From the IMG/VR virus record IMGVR_UViG_2778261300_000003: a stretch of 16,753 nucleotides of DNA. One strand, 5' to 3'. The notes under the pieces are model-generated. The model was not told the DNA's origin. It worked only from the letters and a program-made list of their open reading frames with translations, and searched no databases. The first letter of the stretch is position 1. Each line of letters starts with the position of its first letter. Shown here one piece after another: positions 3,876 to 15,114 of the stretch. The position numbers were made by a program, and so were the translations under genes. This stretch comes from a virus. Lineage: Duplodnaviria > Heunggongvirae > Uroviricota > Caudoviricetes.

Positions 3876-4066
3876 TCAAATCCAACGACAGACGGCTGGC
3901 ATTTAAGTATTGTGAAATATTATCAAATGTAATCATCATTGATTTACAAAAGATACATTTTGCCCCGAAAGGATTCATGTCAGAAACATCAAAAGATGAT
4001 GTTCTATACTGGGAACCATGACAACACGGGCATCTAAAGTGAATATGGTTTGTAATATTGTCTACC

Positions 4067-4279
4067 TCAAAGCGCCACTACATGAACAGCGGCAGGACCT
4101 TTAGGTCCGTTCTCAATACCAAATTCAACTTCCTGATTCTCAGTTAATGTTTTGAAATCGTTGCTCTGAATTGCTGAGAAATGGACAAACACATCTTTGC
4201 TGCCATCTTTCGGCGTGATGAAACCAAAACCTTTTTCAGGGTTAAACCATTTCACTAAACCAGTCATTTTGTTAGACAT
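4067..4279 (-). CDS. cspI: Cold-shock protein, CspA family (CspI-like)
   Basis: ATG at 4279-4277; [53 protein letters not shown]... carries the RNP1 motif KGFGFI and RNP2 VFVHF of the cold-shock domain. Confidence 0.85.
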
Positions 4280-4640
4280 AATTATTACCTTTTGAAGAAA
4301 TTAGCCCTTGGGCAGAATGGTCCGAAAAAAATATCAGAGAGAAAAACCAACAAGGAAATCTCAAGAGGTACAAATAATAAAATTATAACAATGACTGCTT
4401 CAGATAAATTTGTAACAAACCAGAACACCATTAACGCATGATTAACCACCCATAGCAAGGATTACTTTTGTAAAGAAAAACACAGCAATGAAAGAATAGC
4501 TTTATTTATTAATAAAACGTGTCATTCTGATTAAGACCTTTTATCTTACCCTTAAGATTTCAGGAATTTTGGCTCATGGAAGAGTCCTTTTTATTTAAAT
4601 TTTACATTCCGCGATGTAAATGTTCCGATTTAATATTACC

Positions 4641-6670: not shown

Positions 6671-6949
6671 GATTGTGGTGCTTTTTGTGGGAGTCATCCA
6701 CTTACGCACTTTGTTTTGCCATGCCAGCAGTTAGCTTCTGCTGTAAAACTATTCATGCAGCAAACCTGCACTTCACCACAATGGTTAGCATACTTTTCCT
6801 GATTAAGATTTTGCCAAATATGCTAGCCATTGTTTCATGTATTGGACCTCCTTACTTTTTATTAAAGAGATCCAATATTCACTACTCTGTCCGTATCTCT
6901 ACTCAGGCCTCAGCCTTCTTCGTTATCGTATACAGACGAGCGATGAATT

Positions 6950-7165
6950 TTAATCAGTAATGATGACATTTGCTGCTGCAGGACCTTTAGCACCACTCTC
7001 TATAGAGAAGGTAACCTTTTGACCTTCAAATAAGGTTCGATAATTATCATTCTGAATCGCAGAAAAATGCACAAACACATCTTTACTACCATCAACAGGA
7101 GAAATAAAGCCGAAACCTTTATCAGCGTTAAACCATTTTACTAAACCAGTCATTTTATTTGACAT
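6950..7165 (-). CDS. cspB: Cold-shock protein, CspA family (CspB-like)
   Basis: ATG at 7165; [71 protein letters not shown] with RNP1/RNP2 motifs. Confidence 0.85.
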
Positions 7166-7465
7166 TCTACATTCCTTAACTTGAGCCTTTCGGCATAAAT
7201 GGTTTGCATAACAGAAACGACTTCGTACTTAATTGGAGAGACTCAAAGAAGGAATAAGTGAATAACACCTGAAATGAGAACTGCTTTAGTAAACTACTTC
7301 GTATATCGTCTGTTCTTCAAACCGACGCAATCATTAACGCATAGTTGAACATATGAAGCAATGTTTATTTTAGACATCCAGCCATCTTCAACCCCATCAA
7401 AAAACTATAGCTTTCTTCAGGAACGTGTGTATAGTGCGCCAAGTTATCAGTATTAAGGAATTTTT

Positions 7466-8099: not shown

Positions 8100-8852
8100 T
8101 TATCTCGTCACCTTCCTCAATTGCGCTTCCGCGTATGCTTCTTCCTGCCAGCACTTTGTTACCAGTTTACCAATGACGTCCGCATACCCCTTATACCACT
8201 GATAATCGGTCAGGTCTGGTACCAGCTTCTGGACATGACGTCGTGCCAGCGTGGTCGGTAAACGACTAAACCGGTTTCCATTACAACGCCCACAAATCTT
8301 ATATACCGGTACGCCATGAAACCGGGTTCTTTTTTCATCCAGAACAATCCCTTTACCCTTACACCCTCTGCACGCTGTGCTGGCTTCGCCCTTACCATGG
8401 CAATGCTGACATAGTTCCTTCACCCATTCTTCCTTGATTACAGATTCCCCGCGTCTGTAGTGTTTCACCACTTCGCGCAATACATTATAAAATCCCGTAC
8501 CTGAACAATGCTCACAGCGAGCCTTACTTGCCGCAGACCTGGAGTAATCAGCAAAGGCAAAACTCACGAGGTAAGGAATAATCTGTAACCGGATTTCTTC
8601 ACTCAATTTGTTCAATGTCGGGTTATCCAGTGCCATCGCGTAATTTAGCAGGCCTTCAATCGCAAACTGAGGGTCCTGAACACCAACTTTTGCCAGAAAT
8701 AAGGCCAACCCAAGTGGTGCTTTCGACTGCACCATCCCCTGCGCTGCCATTACATCCGTAATTGTTAAACAACCGGTGCCTGTCGCTGGAGCGTCATCGC
8801 TCAATTTTGGAGATTTTGGGGAGTAATATTTTGGTAAGGCTTCAAGGTTCAT
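8100..8852 (-). CDS. Late-gene antitermination protein Q (Q21/Q82/QuuQ-like), 250 aa
   Basis: ATG at 8852 with SD GGAG 8 nt upstream (the track ORF starts at a TTG at 8882). Cys/His-rich zinc-binding region (CEHCSGTG ... CQHCHGKG ... CRGCKGKG ... CGRCNG) and position just upstream of the late promoter and lysis genes. Confidence 0.8.
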   Translation of the reverse strand: MNLEALPKYYSPKSPKLSDDAPATGTGCLTITDVMAAQGMVQSKAPLGLALFLAKVGVQDPQFAIEGLLNYAMALDNPTLNKLSEEIRLQIIPYLVSFAFADYSRSAASKARCEHCSGTGFYNVLREVVKHYRRGESVIKEEWVKELCQHCHGKGEASTACRGCKGKGIVLDEKRTRFHGVPVYKICGRCNGNRFSRLPTTLARRHVQKLVPDLTDYQWYKGYADVIGKLVTKCWQEEAYAEAQLRKVTR

Positions 8853-8865
8853 GCTCGTTCTCCAC

Positions 8866-9915
8866 TTACGCCAGTACGCCAATTGCCAGCGCGCGATCGA
8901 TAAAACGAAATATCAGCTCCAGTTGGGAGCCATACTTATCTTCAAATGCCACTGTATCCGTATGCAGCTCGTTGTGATGCTTTCTGCACAAAGGCAACAC
9001 AAAGAGATCATGTGCTTTTGTTCCCATTCCGCCCTGCCCGTGACCAATCAGATGATGCGGATCGTCGGCTGGCATACCGCAGCAAGCACACGGCTGTGTC
9101 TTAACCCAACGTGTGTATTTCTCCTTAACCCAGCGGCGACGTTTAGGCAGCTTCATGAAAGATTCCGGAGACTCTGGATCAACGGTGATGCTTACCACCG
9201 TCTTTTCCTGTGGTGATTTTTGTTGCTGGTGGGCGTAAGGCAACGGTGCAAGATTTTTTGTGCGTTGTTTCAATATGCTGGTGGCGGTCTGCTCTCCCGG
9301 TACGATGTCGCTTTCGCGGTACACCGAGCAGATTTTTTCCGCTGGTAATCCCAGCGAACGACGCGATACAGCCTCAGGTAGTGCATCCACCACCTGATTG
9401 CAGACCGCCCACCAGGATAATTCAGCCAAAGATAATTCCCGCTCCTGCGTACCGCTTATTGCGTGACGGATGACGTCAATCACCCATGCTGTCAGATTTT
9501 GTTGAGCAAGCAGCTCCAGTGATTCCGATGTCTGGTCACGCAGTTGGTTGTCGCAGTGCCAGCACAACACCATTGCGCCGGTACCATAACGGTGAATGAC
9601 TGTTTCAGTGTGATGGTAATCGCCATTAGGCCACTGGCAGGATGTAACATGACGTAATAGCCAGTCGGACAATGCGCCAACGCCGCCAGCAGCACGAATC
9701 ACCCGTTCGTTACTAAAAAACGGCAGCAATGTTTTGTCTTCCGCCAGCGGCTGGCGAACGGCAGGAACGACTCCGGATGGCAGATTACGCATGCTTTTTG
9801 GTTCCGGTTCCACCAGCACTCGAGGATTATGAAATATCTGTATGGATTCACGGCCCGGCTTAAGGACCACCAGCCCAAGCTCAGGCACCAGAACAGGTCT
9901 AAGTAATACCCGCAC
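8866..9915 (-). CDS. YdfU-like (DUF968) protein with C-terminal Cys/His HNH-like motif
   Basis: Frame open from 9954, but the 9954 start is a GTG with no SD; a GTG at 9915 is preceded by GGAGG (4-nt spacer) and gives 349 aa. C-terminal region has CACCG...DDPHHLIGHG...HDLFVLPLCRKHHNELH, resembling HNH/zinc-finger nuclease motifs. Family name from recollection. Confidence 0.55.
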   Translation of the reverse strand: MRVLLRPVLVPELGLVVLKPGRESIQIFHNPRVLVEPEPKSMRNLPSGVVPAVRQPLAEDKTLLPFFSNERVIRAAGGVGALSDWLLRHVTSCQWPNGDYHHTETVIHRYGTGAMVLCWHCDNQLRDQTSESLELLAQQNLTAWVIDVIRHAISGTQERELSLAELSWWAVCNQVVDALPEAVSRRSLGLPAEKICSVYRESDIVPGEQTATSILKQRTKNLAPLPYAHQQQKSPQEKTVVSITVDPESPESFMKLPKRRRWVKEKYTRWVKTQPCACCGMPADDPHHLIGHGQGGMGTKAHDLFVLPLCRKHHNELHTDTVAFEDKYGSQLELIFRFIDRALAIGVLA

Positions 9916-10496: not shown

Positions 10497-10904
10497 ATGG
10501 ATACAAGAACCCTAGGCCAGCGAGTTCTGGCGCGACGAAAAGAATTACGCTTAACACAACGAGAAGCTGCGCGCCTCGCTGGGGTTGCTCACGTCACAAT
10601 TTCACAATGGGAAAGAGACGAAACCCAGCCAGTCGGAAAACGATTGTTTGCTTTAGCGGATGCTCTGAAGTGCTCACCTACATGGCTAATGTTTGGTGAC
10701 GAAGACAAGGCACCAGTGCCGGCACAAGAACTTCATGTGGAAACAGAGCTAACTCCCAACCACAAAGAATTGATCGAATTATTCGATGCTCTTCCATCTT
10801 CCGAGCAGGAAGCCTTGCTGTCTGAAATGCGCGCAAGAGTAGAAAACTTCAACAAACTCTTCGAAGAAATGCTTAAAGCGCGTAAAAATAAATCAATAAA
10901 ATAA
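10497..10904 (+). CDS. dicA: Prophage repressor, DicA-like (XRE-family HTH, cI analogue)
   Basis: MDTRTLGQRVLARRKELRLTQREAARLAGVAHVTISQWERDETQP... N-terminal HTH (QREAARLAGVAHVTISQWE); C-terminal SPTWLMFGDEDK...EMRARVENFNKLFEEMLKAR resembles K-12 DicA as recalled. Confidence 0.85.
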   Translation: MDTRTLGQRVLARRKELRLTQREAARLAGVAHVTISQWERDETQPVGKRLFALADALKCSPTWLMFGDEDKAPVPAQELHVETELTPNHKELIELFDALPSSEQEALLSEMRARVENFNKLFEEMLKARKNKSIK

Positions 10905-11387: not shown

Positions 11388-11606
11388 ATGCAGAAACGAG
11401 AACCCGTCATCATCGCGCCAGACTATACCGATGATGAACTTTATGAGTGGATGCGCCAGAAAATTAATGCAGCGCAGGATCTGAAATGGGCTAATGAAGC
11501 CAGGGCTAAGCAGGCTGAAAATCTGTCCGCTCTGGAGCAGGATATCACCAATCTGGAAAAAGCAGCGGCATTAAGCATTGCCAGAATGATTACATACCCG
11601 CGTTAG
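11388..11606 (+). CDS. ydfC: YdfC-like protein (72 aa)
   Basis: ATG at 11388 with SD GAGGAA; MQKREPVIIAPDYTDDELYEWMRQKINAAQDLKWANEARAKQAENLSALEQDITNLEKAAALSIARMITYPR. Confidence 0.65.
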   Translation: MQKREPVIIAPDYTDDELYEWMRQKINAAQDLKWANEARAKQAENLSALEQDITNLEKAAALSIARMITYPR

Positions 11607-11946
11607 TAGCTAATCAACAAAGCTAAGGTTAGTAATTAAGGAGTTCTCCACGGGTGAGGTGGAGTGCGTGCGCCGGACACGGGTGCGCATCCGGAACTGA
11701 CAGTTTACTGAAAGGATATTTCCCTGAAAAGTCAGACCATAACGCGAAAGCGCACGGCGAGGTAGCTGGTTCATAGATAGCCTGTCGTTAAATTTTCGTC
11801 GACCGTGCGCTTCCGGTTGTGGCAACCCGCGAAATGGCGCGGCGGTAAGTATGGCGGGGTTATTCCTTCCCCGTTGAGGACACCGGGTTGTCAGGTTGAC
11901 CATACGCTTAAGTGACAACCCCGCTGCAACGCCCTCTGTTATCAAT

Positions 11947-12004
11947 TTTCTGGTGACGTTTGGCGGTATCAGTTTTACTCCGTGACTGCTCTGCCGCCCT
12001 TTTT
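11947..12004 (+). ncRNA. dicF: DicF small RNA (ftsZ-targeting antisense sRNA)
   Basis: tttctggtgacgtttggcggtatcagttttactccgtgactgctctgccgcccttttt matches DicF as recalled; it ends in a GC stem (ggcgg...ccgcc) plus U-run and lies between ydfC and dicB. The upstream 330 nt is GC-rich and structured. Confidence 0.7.
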
Positions 12005-12173
12005 AAAGTGAATTTTGTGATGTGGTGAATGCGGCTGAGCGCACGCGGAACAGTTAAAACCAAAAACAGTGTTATGGGTGGATTCTCTGTATCCGGCGTT
12101 AATTGTTAACTGGTTAACGTCACCTGGAGGCACCAGGCACTGCATCACAAAATTCATTGTTGAGGACGCGATA

Positions 12174-12362
12174 ATGAAAACGTTATTACCAAACGTTAAT
12201 ACGTCTGAAGGTTGTTTTGAAATTGGTGTCACTATCAGTAACCCAGTATTTACTGAAGATGCCATTAACAAGAGAAAACAAGAACGGGAGCTATTAAATA
12301 AAATATGCATTGTTTCAATGCTGGCTCGTTTACGTCTGATGCCAAAAGGATGTGCACAATGA
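12174..12362 (+). CDS. dicB: Cell-division inhibitor DicB (62 aa)
   Basis: ATG at 12174 with SD GAGGA; MKTLLPNVNTSEGCFEIGVTISNPVFTEDAINKRKQERELLNKICIVSMLARLRLMPKGCAQ matches K-12 DicB as recalled. The track ORF starts upstream at 12069. Confidence 0.85.
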   Translation: MKTLLPNVNTSEGCFEIGVTISNPVFTEDAINKRKQERELLNKICIVSMLARLRLMPKGCAQ

Positions 12363-12550: not shown

Positions 12551-12642
12551 AACAGTTCCGTAATAAATATCCGGTTTCATTCTTATATGCCAGCAATGGC
12601 AGGGATTTGTTCATCCTTAAATCTGTCATGAGGTTAAAACAA

Positions 12643-15114
12643 ATGAGTAAAGTCTTTATTTGCGCCGCTATTCCTGACGAACTGGCAACAAGGGAAGAAG
12701 GCGCTGTGGCTGTAGCCACAGCCATTGAAGCTGGCGACGAACGCCGTGCTCGAGCAAAATTTCACTGGCAATTCCTGGAACATTATCCGGCTGCTCAGGA
12801 CTGCGCTTATAAATTTATTGTCTGCGAGGATAAACCTGGCATACCCCGCCCTGCCCTCGATTCATGGGATGCTGAATATATGCAGGAAAACCGCTGGGAT
12901 GAGGAGTCTGCTTCTTTTGTCCCGGTTGAGACTGAATCCGATCCGATGAACGTCACTTTTGACAAGCTGGCCCCTGAAGTACAGAACGCTGTCATGGTTA
13001 AGTTCGACACATGTGAAAACATCACCGTTGATATGGTTATTAGCGCACAGGAATTGTTGCAGGAAGACATGGCAACATTCGACGGACATATCGTTGAAGC
13101 GTTGATGAAAATGCCAGAAGTTAACGCCATGTATCCGGAGCTTAAGTTGCACGCCATTGGGTGGGTTAAGCATAAATGTATTCCTGGTGCTAAATGGCCC
13201 GAAATTCAGGCAGAGATGCGCATCTGGAAAAAACGTCGCGAAGGTGAACGCAAGGAAACCGGAAAATACACGTCTGTTGTTGATCTCGCCCGCGCCAGAG
13301 CCAATCAACAGTACACTGAAAATTCAACAGGAAAAATCAGCCCGGTCATTGCTGCCATTCATCGCGAATACAAGCAGACATGGAAAACACTGGATGACGA
13401 ACTGGCCTACGCTCTCTGGCCTAGTGATGTGGATGCCGGAAACATTGACGGCAGCATCCATCGCTGGGCAAAAAAAGAAGTTATCGACAACGACCGCGAA
13501 GACTGGAAGCGTATCTCGGCATCAATGCGCAAACAGCCTGATGCCCTTCGCTACGACCGCCAAACTATTTTTGGCCTTGTCCGTGAGCGTCCGATCGACA
13601 TTCACAAAGATCCCGTAGCACTGAACAAATATATCTGCGAATACCTGACGACAAAGGGCGTGTTTGAGAATGAAGAAACAGACCTGGGCACTGTTGATGT
13701 TCTCCAGTCATCAGAAACACAAACTGATGCAGTGGAAACTGAGGTATCTGATATCCCAAAAAATGAAACCGCGCCGGAAGCTGAACCATCTGTAGAGCGT
13801 GAGGGGCCGTTCTATTTCCTCTTCGCAGATAAGGACGGAGAAAAATACGGTCGCGCAAACAAACTCTCTGGTCTGGATAAGGCACTGGCTGCTGGCGCCA
13901 CTGAAATCACAAAAGAAGAATATTTTGCCCGAAAAAATGGCACATACACGGGCTTACCGCAAAATGTAGATACCGCTGAAGATTCAGAACAACCAGAGCC
14001 GATAAAAGTTACCGCTGACGAAGTAAACAAAATTATGCAGGCAGCCAATATCAGCCAGCCTGACGCCGATAAGTTGCTTGCTGCATCACGTGGTGAATTT
14101 GTTGAAGGGATTAGTGACCCGAATGATCCGAAATGGGTTAAGGGGCTCCAGACCCGCGATTCTGTGAACCAGAACCAGCATGAATCGGAACGGAACTACC
14201 AAAAAGCGGAACAAAACAGTCCAAATGCGTTACAAAACGAGCCAGAAACGAAACAGCCTGAACCAGTAGCGCAACAGGAAGTGGAAAAAGTCTGCACCGC
14301 CTGCGGTCAGACCGGCGGCGGCAACTGCCCTGATTGTGGCGCGGTGATGGGCGACGCAACATACCAAGAAACATTCGATGAAGAGTATCAGGTTGAAGTT
14401 CAGGAAGATGATCCGGAGGAAATGGAAGGCGCTGAACATCCACACAAGGAGAACACTGGCGGCAATCAGCATCACAATAGCGATAATGAAACTGGCGAGA
14501 CGGCAGATCACCCAATTAAGGTGAACGGTCATCACGAAATCACATCCACCAGCAGGACGTGTGACCATCTAATGATCGACCTTGAAACCATGGGAAAAAA
14601 TCCTGATGCCCCGATCATCTCAATAGGTGCAATATTTTTCGATCCGCAAACCGGAGATATGGGACCGGAATTTAGTAAGACTATCGATCTGGAAACTGCT
14701 GGCGGAGTCATTGATCGGGACACCATTAAATGGTGGCTTAAGCAATCACGCGAAGCGCAATCTGCCATTATGACCGATGAAATCCCGTTAGATGATGCAC
14801 TGTTACAATTGCGAGAATTTATCGACGAAAACTCCGGTGAATTTTTTGTTCAGGTTTGGGGAAATGGAGCCAACTTCGACAACACGATTTTGCGCCGTTC
14901 ATACGAACGGCAGGGGATCCCCTGCCCGTGGCGTTACTACAACGATCGCGATGTACGCACAATCGTTGAGCTGGGGAAAGCCATAGACTTCGATGCCAGA
15001 ACGGCTATTCCATTCGAAGGTGAGCGCCATAATGCACTTGATGACGCCCGTTACCAGGCAAAATACGTTTCAGTTATCTGGCAAAAACTGATCCCGAGTC
15101 AGGCTGATTCTTAA
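12643..15114 (+). CDS. Large exonuclease: RecE/YdfE-like N-terminal region and zinc-ribbon linker fused to a C-terminal DEDDh (DnaQ-like) 3'-5' exonuclease domain (823 aa)
   Basis: ATG at 12643 with GAGG upstream (track start 12607 is a TTG). CTACGQTGGGNCPDCG zinc ribbon around 14294-14340. C-terminal domain (about 14560-15114) carries Exo I MIDLETMG, Exo II WGNGANFD and Exo III HNALDDARY motifs, read directly from the translation. The N-terminal two thirds resemble the Rac RecE N-terminal region and K-12 YdfE as recalled. Confidence 0.8.
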   Translation: MSKVFICAAIPDELATREEGAVAVATAIEAGDERRARAKFHWQFLEHYPAAQDCAYKFIVCEDKPGIPRPALDSWDAEYMQENRWDEESASFVPVETESDPMNVTFDKLAPEVQNAVMVKFDTCENITVDMVISAQELLQEDMATFDGHIVEALMKMPEVNAMYPELKLHAIGWVKHKCIPGAKWPEIQAEMRIWKKRREGERKETGKYTSVVDLARARANQQYTENSTGKISPVIAAIHREYKQTWKTLDDELAYALWPSDVDAGNIDGSIHRWAKKEVIDNDREDWKRISASMRKQPDALRYDRQTIFGLVRERPIDIHKDPVALNKYICEYLTTKGVFENEETDLGTVDVLQSSETQTDAVETEVSDIPKNETAPEAEPSVEREGPFYFLFADKDGEKYGRANKLSGLDKALAAGATEITKEEYFARKNGTYTGLPQNVDTAEDSEQPEPIKVTADEVNKIMQAANISQPDADKLLAASRGEFVEGISDPNDPKWVKGLQTRDSVNQNQHESERNYQKAEQNSPNALQNEPETKQPEPVAQQEVEKVCTACGQTGGGNCPDCGAVMGDATYQETFDEEYQVEVQEDDPEEMEGAEHPHKENTGGNQHHNSDNETGETADHPIKVNGHHEITSTSRTCDHLMIDLETMGKNPDAPIISIGAIFFDPQTGDMGPEFSKTIDLETAGGVIDRDTIKWWLKQSREAQSAIMTDEIPLDDALLQLREFIDENSGEFFVQVWGNGANFDNTILRRSYERQGIPCPWRYYNDRDVRTIVELGKAIDFDARTAIPFEGERHNALDDARYQAKYVSVIWQKLIPSQADS

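Follow-up and report, generated by a model that had tools for sequence, protein, structure and literature searches.

DicF is among the oldest known bacterial small RNAs (sRNAs), and its 190-nucleotide (nt) precursor has been seen on gels since 1990. The locus considered here raises the question of what the sequence upstream of DicF contains besides a leader that is cut away. It lies in a stretch of 16,753 nt from a virus of the Caudoviricetes (IMG/VR record IMGVR_UViG_2778261300_000003), hereafter the window, in whose positions coordinates are given unless a related locus is named. Between ydfC and dicF, the window carries a spacer of 340 nt on the + strand (11607-11946), which the initial annotation took for the processed leader of DicF, allowing that a second RNA element could be hidden in it. 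That element exists: the segment 11816-11930, referred to below as the core, is separately conserved, shows covariation and has no Rfam match. We regard it as almost certainly a real, selected, non-coding RNA structure, and tentatively propose that it controls, in cis, the choice between termination and read-through.

A cloverleaf-like RNA core with a pseudoknot

The core comprises six helices, all given here on the + strand:

11816-11930, + strand: the whole core, a cloverleaf-like four-way junction with a pseudoknot, supported by the covariance model R1 and by covariation
11816-11823 / 11923-11930, + strand: closing helix P1, GUUGUGGC / GCUGCAAC; 96.5% of alignment cells paired, two compensatory pairs
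11827-11842 (11827-31 / 11838-42), + strand: hairpin P2, CCGCG-AAAUGG-CGCGG; 95.5% of cells paired, one-sided changes only
11843-11846 / 11882-11885, + strand: helix P5, CGGU / ACCG; 99.7% of cells paired, U-A replaced by C-G in P7-type copies
11849-11854 / 11900-11905, + strand: pseudoknot of 6 base pairs (bp), GUAUGG / CCAUAC in the P4 loop; 99.3% of cells paired
11855-11873 (11855-59 / 11869-73), + strand: hairpin P3, CGGGG-UUAUUCCUU-CCCCG; variable stem, pyrimidine-rich loop, three compensatory pairs
11886-11920 (11886-93 / 11913-20), + strand: hairpin P4, GGUUGUCA ... UGACAACC; compensatory changes in six of eight pairs

Helices P1, P2, P5 and P4 meet with few or zero linker bases, which gives the junction its cloverleaf-like form, and the pseudoknot joins the strand preceding P3 to the loop of P4. 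In A3, an alignment of 76 distinct sequences that was made to model R1 and hence leans towards the structure, 96.1% of cells are paired, as against at most 56% with the partners slid, and 13 pairs carry compensatory changes; none of 500 shuffles reaches any of these measures. An unfitted MAFFT alignment of 23 diverse copies gives 93.4% paired cells (at most 54% when slid) and nine compensatory pairs, and from it RNAalifold independently recovers P2, P5, P3 and P4. The minimum free energy (MFE) fold of a 120-nt core alone is the same cloverleaf. A conserved structure with compensatory changes is what folding and covariation across homologues, the check proposed in the initial annotation, bring to light. 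Model R1 scores 140.8 bits in the window and at least 86 bits in all relatives, with chance matches at 13 bits or less.

Compensatory changes are found in five of the six helices, P2 being the exception. The pseudoknot changes from U-A to C-G in copies of the phage P1 type and tolerates a U-G wobble in four sequences, and the P3 hairpin is retained with at least nine different stem sequences. Helix P1 is not universal: phages P1 and P7 lack it, as do three deletion variants (L016, L061 and L142). About 40 positions are invariant, and they lie mostly in the P2 loop (where A26, A28 and G30 never vary), in the stretch GGCGGUAAG and in the P4 loop, a near-invariant sequence of 19 nt, GGUUGACCAUACGCUUAAG, whose loop positions are invariant across the 23 diverse sequences. 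A further local pseudoknot, which would pair the P3 loop with the J3/4 junction, was considered and left out of the fold, because by eye it holds in only about six of 13 types.

The strand on which the RNA is made cannot be read from folding energy alone, because both strands of the spacer fold better than shuffles. The description of the spacer as highly structured nevertheless stands: the + strand has an MFE of -123.4 kcal/mol, compared with -109.9 +/- 5.1 kcal/mol for dinucleotide shuffles (z = -2.64; none of 100 as good), while the - strand gives z = -2.51 on the same kind of shuffles. G-U pairs modestly favour the + strand, with 96.1% of cells paired against 92.9% when the alignment is read as the - strand.

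The core corresponds to no catalogued RNA family. The Rfam scan that had been suggested for the spacer was run and returned DicF (RF00039) only at 11948-11999, where it scores 76.7 bits and the gathering score is 48. Searched against Rfam 15 on either strand at E <= 10 with permissive filters, the segment 11805-11945 has no match, the DicF model finds nothing within 11607-11946 even at E <= 10, and at the gathering score no family falls on the core in 10 related loci. A transfer RNA (tRNA) or transfer-messenger RNA (tmRNA) was also considered and rejected, with ARAGORN predicting no gene in the window or in eight related loci and Rfam giving no tRNA match.

Distribution beyond DicF

The core is conserved more widely than DicF itself. 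Copies were gathered by pattern scans of viral contigs and species-representative genomes, and chance matches were separated from them by the R1 score; true copies come from Escherichia, Shigella, Citrobacter, Serratia symbiotica, Trabulsiella, Erwinia tracheiphila and Izhakiella. Among complete Escherichia coli genomes, 4417 of 5426 (about 80%) carry the core, with a median of two copies and a maximum of eight, most of them more than 95% identical. It is also present in 511 plasmid records, nearly all non-mobilizable and of P1-like size, and in the 25 RefSeq E. coli records that were listed the matched segment carries no annotated feature.

The segment from about 11816 to 11938 recurs at 78-89% identity in otherwise unrelated phage settings, including the cdtI and Stx2c-converting phages, Ayreon, a Rac-like phage recorded from Actinobacillus, and P1, P7 and P1-like phages. 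In the copies from P1, P7, Erwinia, Serratia and Izhakiella, the identity (77-89%) is confined to the core and the flanks are unrelated. The BLAST similarity between P1 and the E. coli prophage Qin likewise lies wholly within the core (11827-11923). This bears on the 'dicF-like region' of phage P1 (NC_005856, 68791-68892; locus L001, 2553-2654), which is the 3' half of the P1 core plus a terminator: the label credits dicF, whereas the similarity to Qin is actually in the core, and the Rfam DicF model has no match in P1.

Two side observations concern the surroundings of these copies. The cdtI phage and a Citrobacter prophage, both of which carry the core, also show matches to the C4 antisense RNA and isrK together, on the side of the rightward operon (L003, 40-228, - strand, and L153, 1630-1815, - strand, respectively). 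Two T-arm-like hairpins, GGGTTCAATTCCTGCC and GTCCGTTCAATTCGGAC, stand about 20-90 nt upstream of the core in Erwinia (L158), Izhakiella (L161) and a viral contig (L053); ARAGORN predicts no tRNA at these hairpins in the three leaders.

A constant position before an intrinsic terminator

In every copy examined, an intrinsic terminator hairpin follows 10-45 nt downstream of the core. The lambdoid copies share the terminator base GGCGG...CCGCC and its U run, while the remaining sRNA or terminator sequence is of at least six types, and the recombination joints are located at the end of helix P1. The core is thus independent of DicF, preceding at least six unrelated sRNA or terminator sequences. 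To judge from these comparisons, it would not be there for the target pairing of DicF and appears to travel as a unit that is always placed directly before the intrinsic terminator met first in an early operon under repressor control.

The operons themselves vary. In phage P1, the order is the ban promoter with its operators for the repressor C1, the core, a terminator, tRNAs, tciABC and ban; the core begins about 25-35 nt past the ban promoter start, and after it come a short hairpin and a canonical terminator (8 bp, UUCG loop, T6 run), separated by only about 6 nt of single strand. In P7, as in P1, the core comes right after the repressor-controlled ban promoter. In the Stx2c phage, the repressor gene and its terminator are followed by an early-left promoter (TTGACA-16-CATAAT, an 11/12 match to the consensus), a leader of about 280 nt with no open reading frame (ORF) of 50 amino acids (aa) or more, the core, a 14-bp terminator and then genes. 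The Citrobacter prophage has the order repressor, core, terminator, xis and int, and the Qin, Tritos, PPompW and O157 types have repressor, small genes (ydfABC), core, DicF, dicB, ydfD, exonuclease, xis and int. No N gene is annotated in the core-bearing operons inspected, and in the unannotated Stx2c phage no ORF lies between the repressor gene and the core. A simple terminator scan in Qin found none on the + strand before the core.

Sequences resembling translation signals occur near the core in some copies. In the Erwinia, Izhakiella and Serratia loci (L158, L161 and L140, respectively), the loop of the long terminator hairpin holds a Shine-Dalgarno-like sequence and an ATG (CCAGGAGAGCGAAGATAATG). 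In the window, the 9-mer GTTGAGGAC at 11873-11881, in the P3-P5 junction, recurs exactly at 12159-12167 in the ribosome-binding region of dicB. A role of the P3 loop as anti-Shine-Dalgarno of the downstream toxic gene was rejected, since its duplex energies are no better than those of shuffled loops of the same composition in 14 loci.

The core within the DicF precursor

The spacer as a whole is a mosaic, assembled from separable modules, of which the core is one:

11607-11635, + strand: AT-rich linker after the ydfC stop codon, 31% GC
11636-11740, + strand: upstream hairpin module, fold -35.8 kcal/mol, z = -2.0
11645-11664, + strand: CUCCAC/GUGGAG hairpin of the upstream module
about 11666-11696, + strand: GC-rich hairpin of the upstream module
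11697-11735, + strand: CUGAC...GUCAG hairpin of the upstream module
11741-11818, + strand: long interrupted hairpin, candidate RNase III site, arms about 11741-11763 / 11796-11818, fold -28.2 kcal/mol
11931-11947, + strand: single-stranded AU-rich linker after the core, with the RNase E-dependent cut that gives the DicF 5' end (11947/11948)
11948-12004, + strand: DicF sRNA (RF00039) with its intrinsic terminator (GGCGG...CCGCC, then a U run); termination here gives the 53-nt and 190-nt RNAs (PMC10448788)

The bounds given for the spacer in the initial annotation hold, as the ydfC ORF stops at 11606 and directly abuts it and the DicF match begins at 11948. The two complementary pairs singled out there are present as well: GCGCACGG (11750-57) pairs with CCGTGCGC (11803-10) within an inverted repeat with 13-nt arms (I1), and GGGTTGTCA (11885-93) is complementary to TGACAACCC (11913-21) at nine of nine positions (I7). 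A GC-rich spacer in AT-rich surroundings, as it was described, overstates a contrast that is real but modest: the spacer has 52.9% GC, the 340 nt before it 48.5%, the sequence downstream 42.6% and the window as a whole 45%, and only the last 115 nt of the spacer reach 58%. Many E. coli copies start matching near 11627, and their starts are discrete, at query positions 328, 368, 428 and 484, corresponding to 11627, 11667, 11727 and 11783 in the window, as expected of mosaic breakpoints.

The first hairpins of the spacer, CUCCAC/GUGGAG and the GC-rich one (11636-11708; L008, 2501-2573; L007, 2501-2600), also stand by themselves in phage phi367, ahead of a PAPS-reductase gene, and the upstream hairpin module is found in phiSTEC1589, there with a DicF-like RNA. 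Each time these hairpins follow a small gene of opposite orientation, and they may represent another separable element.

That the spacer serves as a leader from which DicF is excised through the action of RNase III and RNase E is already documented. In E. coli K-12, DicF is seen as 190-nt and 53-nt species, both building up in stationary phase, and Ragunathan et al. 2023 confirm Faubladier 1990 on its processing (PMC10448788). RNase III generates the 5' end of the stable 190-nt form, which vanishes in its absence, and primer extension locates the cut within the sequence of Fig. S1 of that study; inactivation of RNase E raises the 190-nt form and leaves the 53-nt form undetected (PMC10448788). 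No internal promoter for DicF was found in K-12 (PMC10448788), in agreement with which a promoter scan of the + strand of the spacer gave no promoter-like site. The 5' end of DicF corresponds to 11947/11948 in the window (PMC5069750), 17 nt after helix P1.

The long stem predicted at 11741-11818 suits the RNase III dependence, which itself is taken from the literature (PMC10448788), and by eye this stem is retained in Rac-type copies with a compensatory change from A-U to G-C. Length arithmetic (190 - 53 = 137 nt) would put the RNase III cut near 11811, in the 3' arm of the hairpin and just upstream of the core. The core would thus be the 5' body of the 190-nt RNA, which by the same reckoning would consist of the core plus DicF. 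The linker 11931-11947 is predicted to be able to pair, in the window, into a hairpin with the 5' region of DicF. Separately, AGCGCACG occurs at two of the positions 11749-11756, 11804-11811 and 12038-12045 and its complement at one, so that the 3' arm of the RNase III hairpin could also pair downstream of DicF; such pairing would enclose the core and DicF, akin to an rRNA processing stalk.

The genes that flank the spacer are, in order:

10497-10904, + strand: dicA, followed by ydfA and ydfB
11388-11606, + strand: ydfC
12175-12362, + strand: dicB, then ydfD, then an intact 835-aa exonuclease gene

The 835-aa ORF past ydfD occupies 12607-15114 (+ strand), and homologous operons have an exonuclease VIII gene of about 2.5 kb at the same place. 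An Rfam match to STnc100 at 11997-12206 stays below threshold, with 34.4 bits where the gathering score is 47 (E = 1.4e-5); it spans the leader that separates DicF from dicB and takes in the hairpin CACCUGGAGGCACCAGG. Further away, two cspA-type thermoregulator leaders (6934-7326, - strand, 158.8 bits; 4040-4424, - strand, 114.2 bits) presumably belong to copies of the Qin cold-shock genes.

Termination or read-through

What the core does is best approached from its position. We infer a role in cis because it adjoins the first terminator, heads long early operons without an annotated N gene and has conserved loops, and the reading that we put forward, with reserve, is that it controls termination versus read-through. 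At the adjoining terminator, the core would act either on the transcription complex during elongation or on the nascent RNA. Termination would leave a stable long sRNA, while read-through would carry transcription into dicB or kil, the exonuclease gene, xis and int, or, in phage P1, into the tRNAs and ban. The core might do so by binding RNA polymerase or a host factor, as does HK022 put RNA, or it might be a folded sensor, its closing helix being in competition with the terminator. K-12 shows the two outcomes in vivo, with transcripts of 1,146 nt that end at the DicF terminator and transcripts of 1,608 nt that read through it (PMC10448788).

The element closest to the first of these routes is the put RNA of HK022. 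Its two copies, putL and putR, are cis-acting RNAs that bind RNA polymerase at the zinc-binding domain of its beta' subunit and suppress pausing and termination. The put RNAs and the core are alike in being structured RNAs in an early transcript of lambdoid phages that lack N in its usual place, with a repressor-controlled promoter upstream, terminators downstream and no dedicated protein evident. N is neither annotated nor evident in the P1 ban leader or in the Stx2c, cdtI, Citrobacter, Tritos and PPompW settings of the core, and the distance to the start site is similar (about 270 nt for putR, about 280 nt for the Stx2c core). Both also hold two short motifs in the same order, GCNCGGCG and then CA(A)GGWUGA, and in 3.03 Mb of sequence the two lie no more than 90 nt apart nowhere except in copies of the core and in putL and putR, the motifs having been defined post hoc, after the match was seen. 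In HK022 (locus L004), putL at 8238-8313 (- strand), located via a published primer, and putR at 9479-9519 (+ strand), located by similarity, both carry GCNCGGCG and, after it, CA(A)GGATGA. In the core the corresponding sequences are GCGCGGCG and, about 46 nt on, CAGGTTGA, and the putL sequence ACCATGCG is also found in the P4 loop of the P1 core copy. The shared motifs offer a weak lead towards binding of RNA polymerase by the core.

The two elements differ in architecture and setting. A put RNA has about 70 nt in two stem-loops one nucleotide apart, whereas the core has 115 nt in a four-way junction with a pseudoknot; and the core, unlike put, occurs once per phage, on the left-operon side only, next to a terminator that terminates efficiently in vivo. 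A lambda-type nut site was considered too and rejected, as no N gene is annotated in the core operons and only some types have GCUCU-type, boxA-like bases before helix P1; the loop of P2 (AAAUGG or ACAGG) is presumably unlike the boxB pentaloop.

The second route has its counterpart in riboswitch and attenuator leaders. Like them, the core is compact (about 115 nt), has a closing helix and a pseudoknot, holds invariant nucleotides in its junction and loops, and lies directly before an intrinsic terminator, 17-45 nt downstream of it, at the head of an operon. In this window, the 3' strand of helix P1 and the linker can pair with the 5' arm of the terminator. Unlike riboswitches, the core has no Rfam riboswitch match, and no alternative pairing is conserved over the terminator types.

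Related phages that lack the core show what remains without it. In four phages and one further prophage inspected at sequence level, among them Rac-SA53, the Rac-like prophage of COL60J, phiSTEC1589 and PhiR5_2, the RNase III hairpin and a DicF-like terminator are kept and the core is cleanly absent. Where core-bearing phages have GTTGTGG, about 105 nt and CCACAACGAC, the core-less ones have only ...CCGGTTGT(A/G)AATAAC(G/A)AC.... The covariance model finds no core in these loci, in a second Rac-like prophage (L167) or in phage GER2. An N gene is annotated in PhiR5_2 and phiSTEC1589 and none in Rac-SA53. A rule tying absence of the core to presence of N was considered and dropped: two core-less phages have N, and Rac-SA53 and other Rac-like prophages have neither core nor N, so that no strict rule holds.

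Several observations weigh against a role in termination. The core is optional, being absent from the N-less Rac-SA53, from other Rac-like prophages and from two N-bearing phages. In K-12 the DicF terminator works efficiently, most of the RNA being the 53-nt, 190-nt and 1,146-nt species (PMC10448788); a constitutive put-like antiterminator therefore seems unlikely, and the control would have to be conditional or partial. No antiterminator pairing is conserved over the sRNA types: a pairing between the 3' strand of helix P1 and the terminator was rejected as a conserved feature, since Qin shows it clearly but other types have it weakly or not at all. In the window the alternative pairing amounts to GCUG/CAGU plus CGCC/GGCG, and in other types to only 4-6 bp (GCCA/UGGC), not convincingly conserved. 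Homology to put was likewise rejected, given a blastn E value of 0.48 (a 9-mer), no R1 match in the HK022 immunity region and the different architectures. The folding energy of the core alone is unremarkable (z = -1.3), and the role in termination is one that comparative context suggests.

It is somewhat doubtful that the core represents a second class of phage RNA, structurally unrelated, that acts directly on the host transcription machinery, whether as a put-like rider on RNA polymerase or as a sensor for a host factor or metabolite.

Other explanations

A role in processing or stability has some force, but we hold it somewhat less probable than control of termination. The core would then be a compact 5' domain that shields the RNase III-made end of a long sRNA, keeps upstream mRNA off the folding of the sRNA and presents the single-stranded AU-rich segment for a precise RNase E cut. 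The behaviour of the DicF precursor fits this, the 190-nt RNA being stable, accumulating in stationary phase and rising when RNase E is inactivated, with the 53-nt form then undetected (PMC10448788). So do the placing of the RNase E-dependent 5' end 17 nt past helix P1 and the presence of a DicF-like sRNA or terminator after every copy examined. It would also place the core beside the sRNAs that RNase E cuts from mRNA 3' ends and the DicF precursor as described (Faubladier 1990; Ragunathan 2023), since it lies inside the 190-nt species, whose 3' end is made by intrinsic termination; published work on DicF handles the 137 nt upstream as precursor sequence only. Core-less variants still carry the RNase III hairpin, joined directly to the sRNA, which makes the core look like an add-on to a processing cassette. 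Mere protection would need neither some 40 invariant loop and junction nucleotides nor a pseudoknot. Moreover, the P1, cdtI and Stx2c types have no comparable RNase III hairpin before the core, and in P1 the terminator after the core leaves almost no single-stranded seed, so that P1 may have no sRNA to mature.

It is unlikely that the core acts in trans, with the RNA of about 180-190 nt (core plus terminator) as the product itself, a primary transcript in P1 and an RNase III-processed one in Qin, and the DicF-type seeds as passengers. Such an RNA would bind or mimic a host macromolecule, for instance as a tRNA-like decoy or a protein sponge. The products are indeed of similar size, 190 nt in Qin and about 180 nt from start to terminator in P1, as reckoned from the -10 element at 2453-2458 of locus L001 and the terminator end at about 2645; and the strongly conserved loops, the accessory-like presence and absence among related phages and the occurrence of up to eight copies per genome would suit a trans-acting RNA. 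The cloverleaf four-way junction also invites comparison with tRNA, with its 8-bp closing helix, three arms, few or zero linker nucleotides and maturation of the transcript by host RNases. The likeness ends in the details. The tertiary contact is a 6-bp pseudoknot where tRNA has its D-loop/T-loop contact, arm lengths and loops differ, and ARAGORN and the Rfam models of tRNA, tmRNA, Y RNA and C4 RNA, whose precursor in P1 is cut by RNase P, fail to recognize the core. The would-be anticodon loop, that of P3, varies from 8 to 14 nt and in sequence. Nor does a trans-acting role account for the strict placement of the core next to a terminator where long operons begin.

There is very little to be said for the core having no RNA function, whether as a conserved DNA linker for recombination between phage modules or as a sequence that is merely young. 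The mosaic breakpoints at module borders (query 328, 368, 428 and 484, and the end of helix P1) and the near-identity of most E. coli copies are what it would predict. It does not account for the compensatory changes, for a P3 hairpin that survives many different sequences or for identity to the P1, P7, Erwinia, Serratia and Izhakiella copies that is limited to the core, and a stable RNA is known to include this region.

Hardly credible at all is a protein-coding role, for either the antisense ORF of 111 aa (11610-11945) or a + strand ORF of 36 aa (11805-11915), because neither frame is kept over the 76 variants and substitutions compensate base pairing rather than being synonymous. The antisense frame is not the only ORF of the spacer, as had been stated, since the + strand has ORFs of 40 aa (11654-11776) and 36 aa as well; it was rightly judged non-coding, being open in only 45 of the 76 variants. 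In many variants stop codons and, within P3, 1-nt indels interrupt the two frames; the first stop of the + frame falls at varied positions, and the P1 and P7 copies have stop codons in both. Pfam gives no match for the antisense ORF or the 36-aa ORF, and PHROG none for the antisense ORF. In favour of a gene, the 36-aa ORF matches phrog_8854, a viral family of unassigned function, at E = 7e-12, and hypothetical proteins are annotated across the region in several phage records; as the frame is not conserved, phrog_8854 probably consists of ORFs mis-called on the core RNA.

Significance for N-less phages and prophages

The DicF precursor itself and the similarity between P1 and Qin are already known. 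The fold, its independence of DicF and its constant position before a terminator appear to be undescribed in Rfam 15 and the accessible literature, although Faubladier & Bouche 1994 and the 2004 P1 genome paper may note the upstream similarity. The 5' two-thirds of the 190-nt RNA, so far treated as disposable, is a conserved, covarying fold, and the 'dicF-like' similarity of P1 is reframed by it.

If the core does act on termination, it would gate read-through of the first early-left terminator in lambdoid phages that lack N, and of that of the P1 ban operon, and would balance a division-inhibiting sRNA against kil or dicB and the genes of recombination and excision. It offers a target that can be mutated in asking how N-less phages of the Qin and Rac types, and the P1 ban operon, pass their leading terminator. 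Should it prove only a scaffold, it would still be a new RNA family worth curating; should it control termination, it would give a new handle on prophage induction, on the toxic genes dicB and kil, and on the RNA-based control of RNA polymerase.

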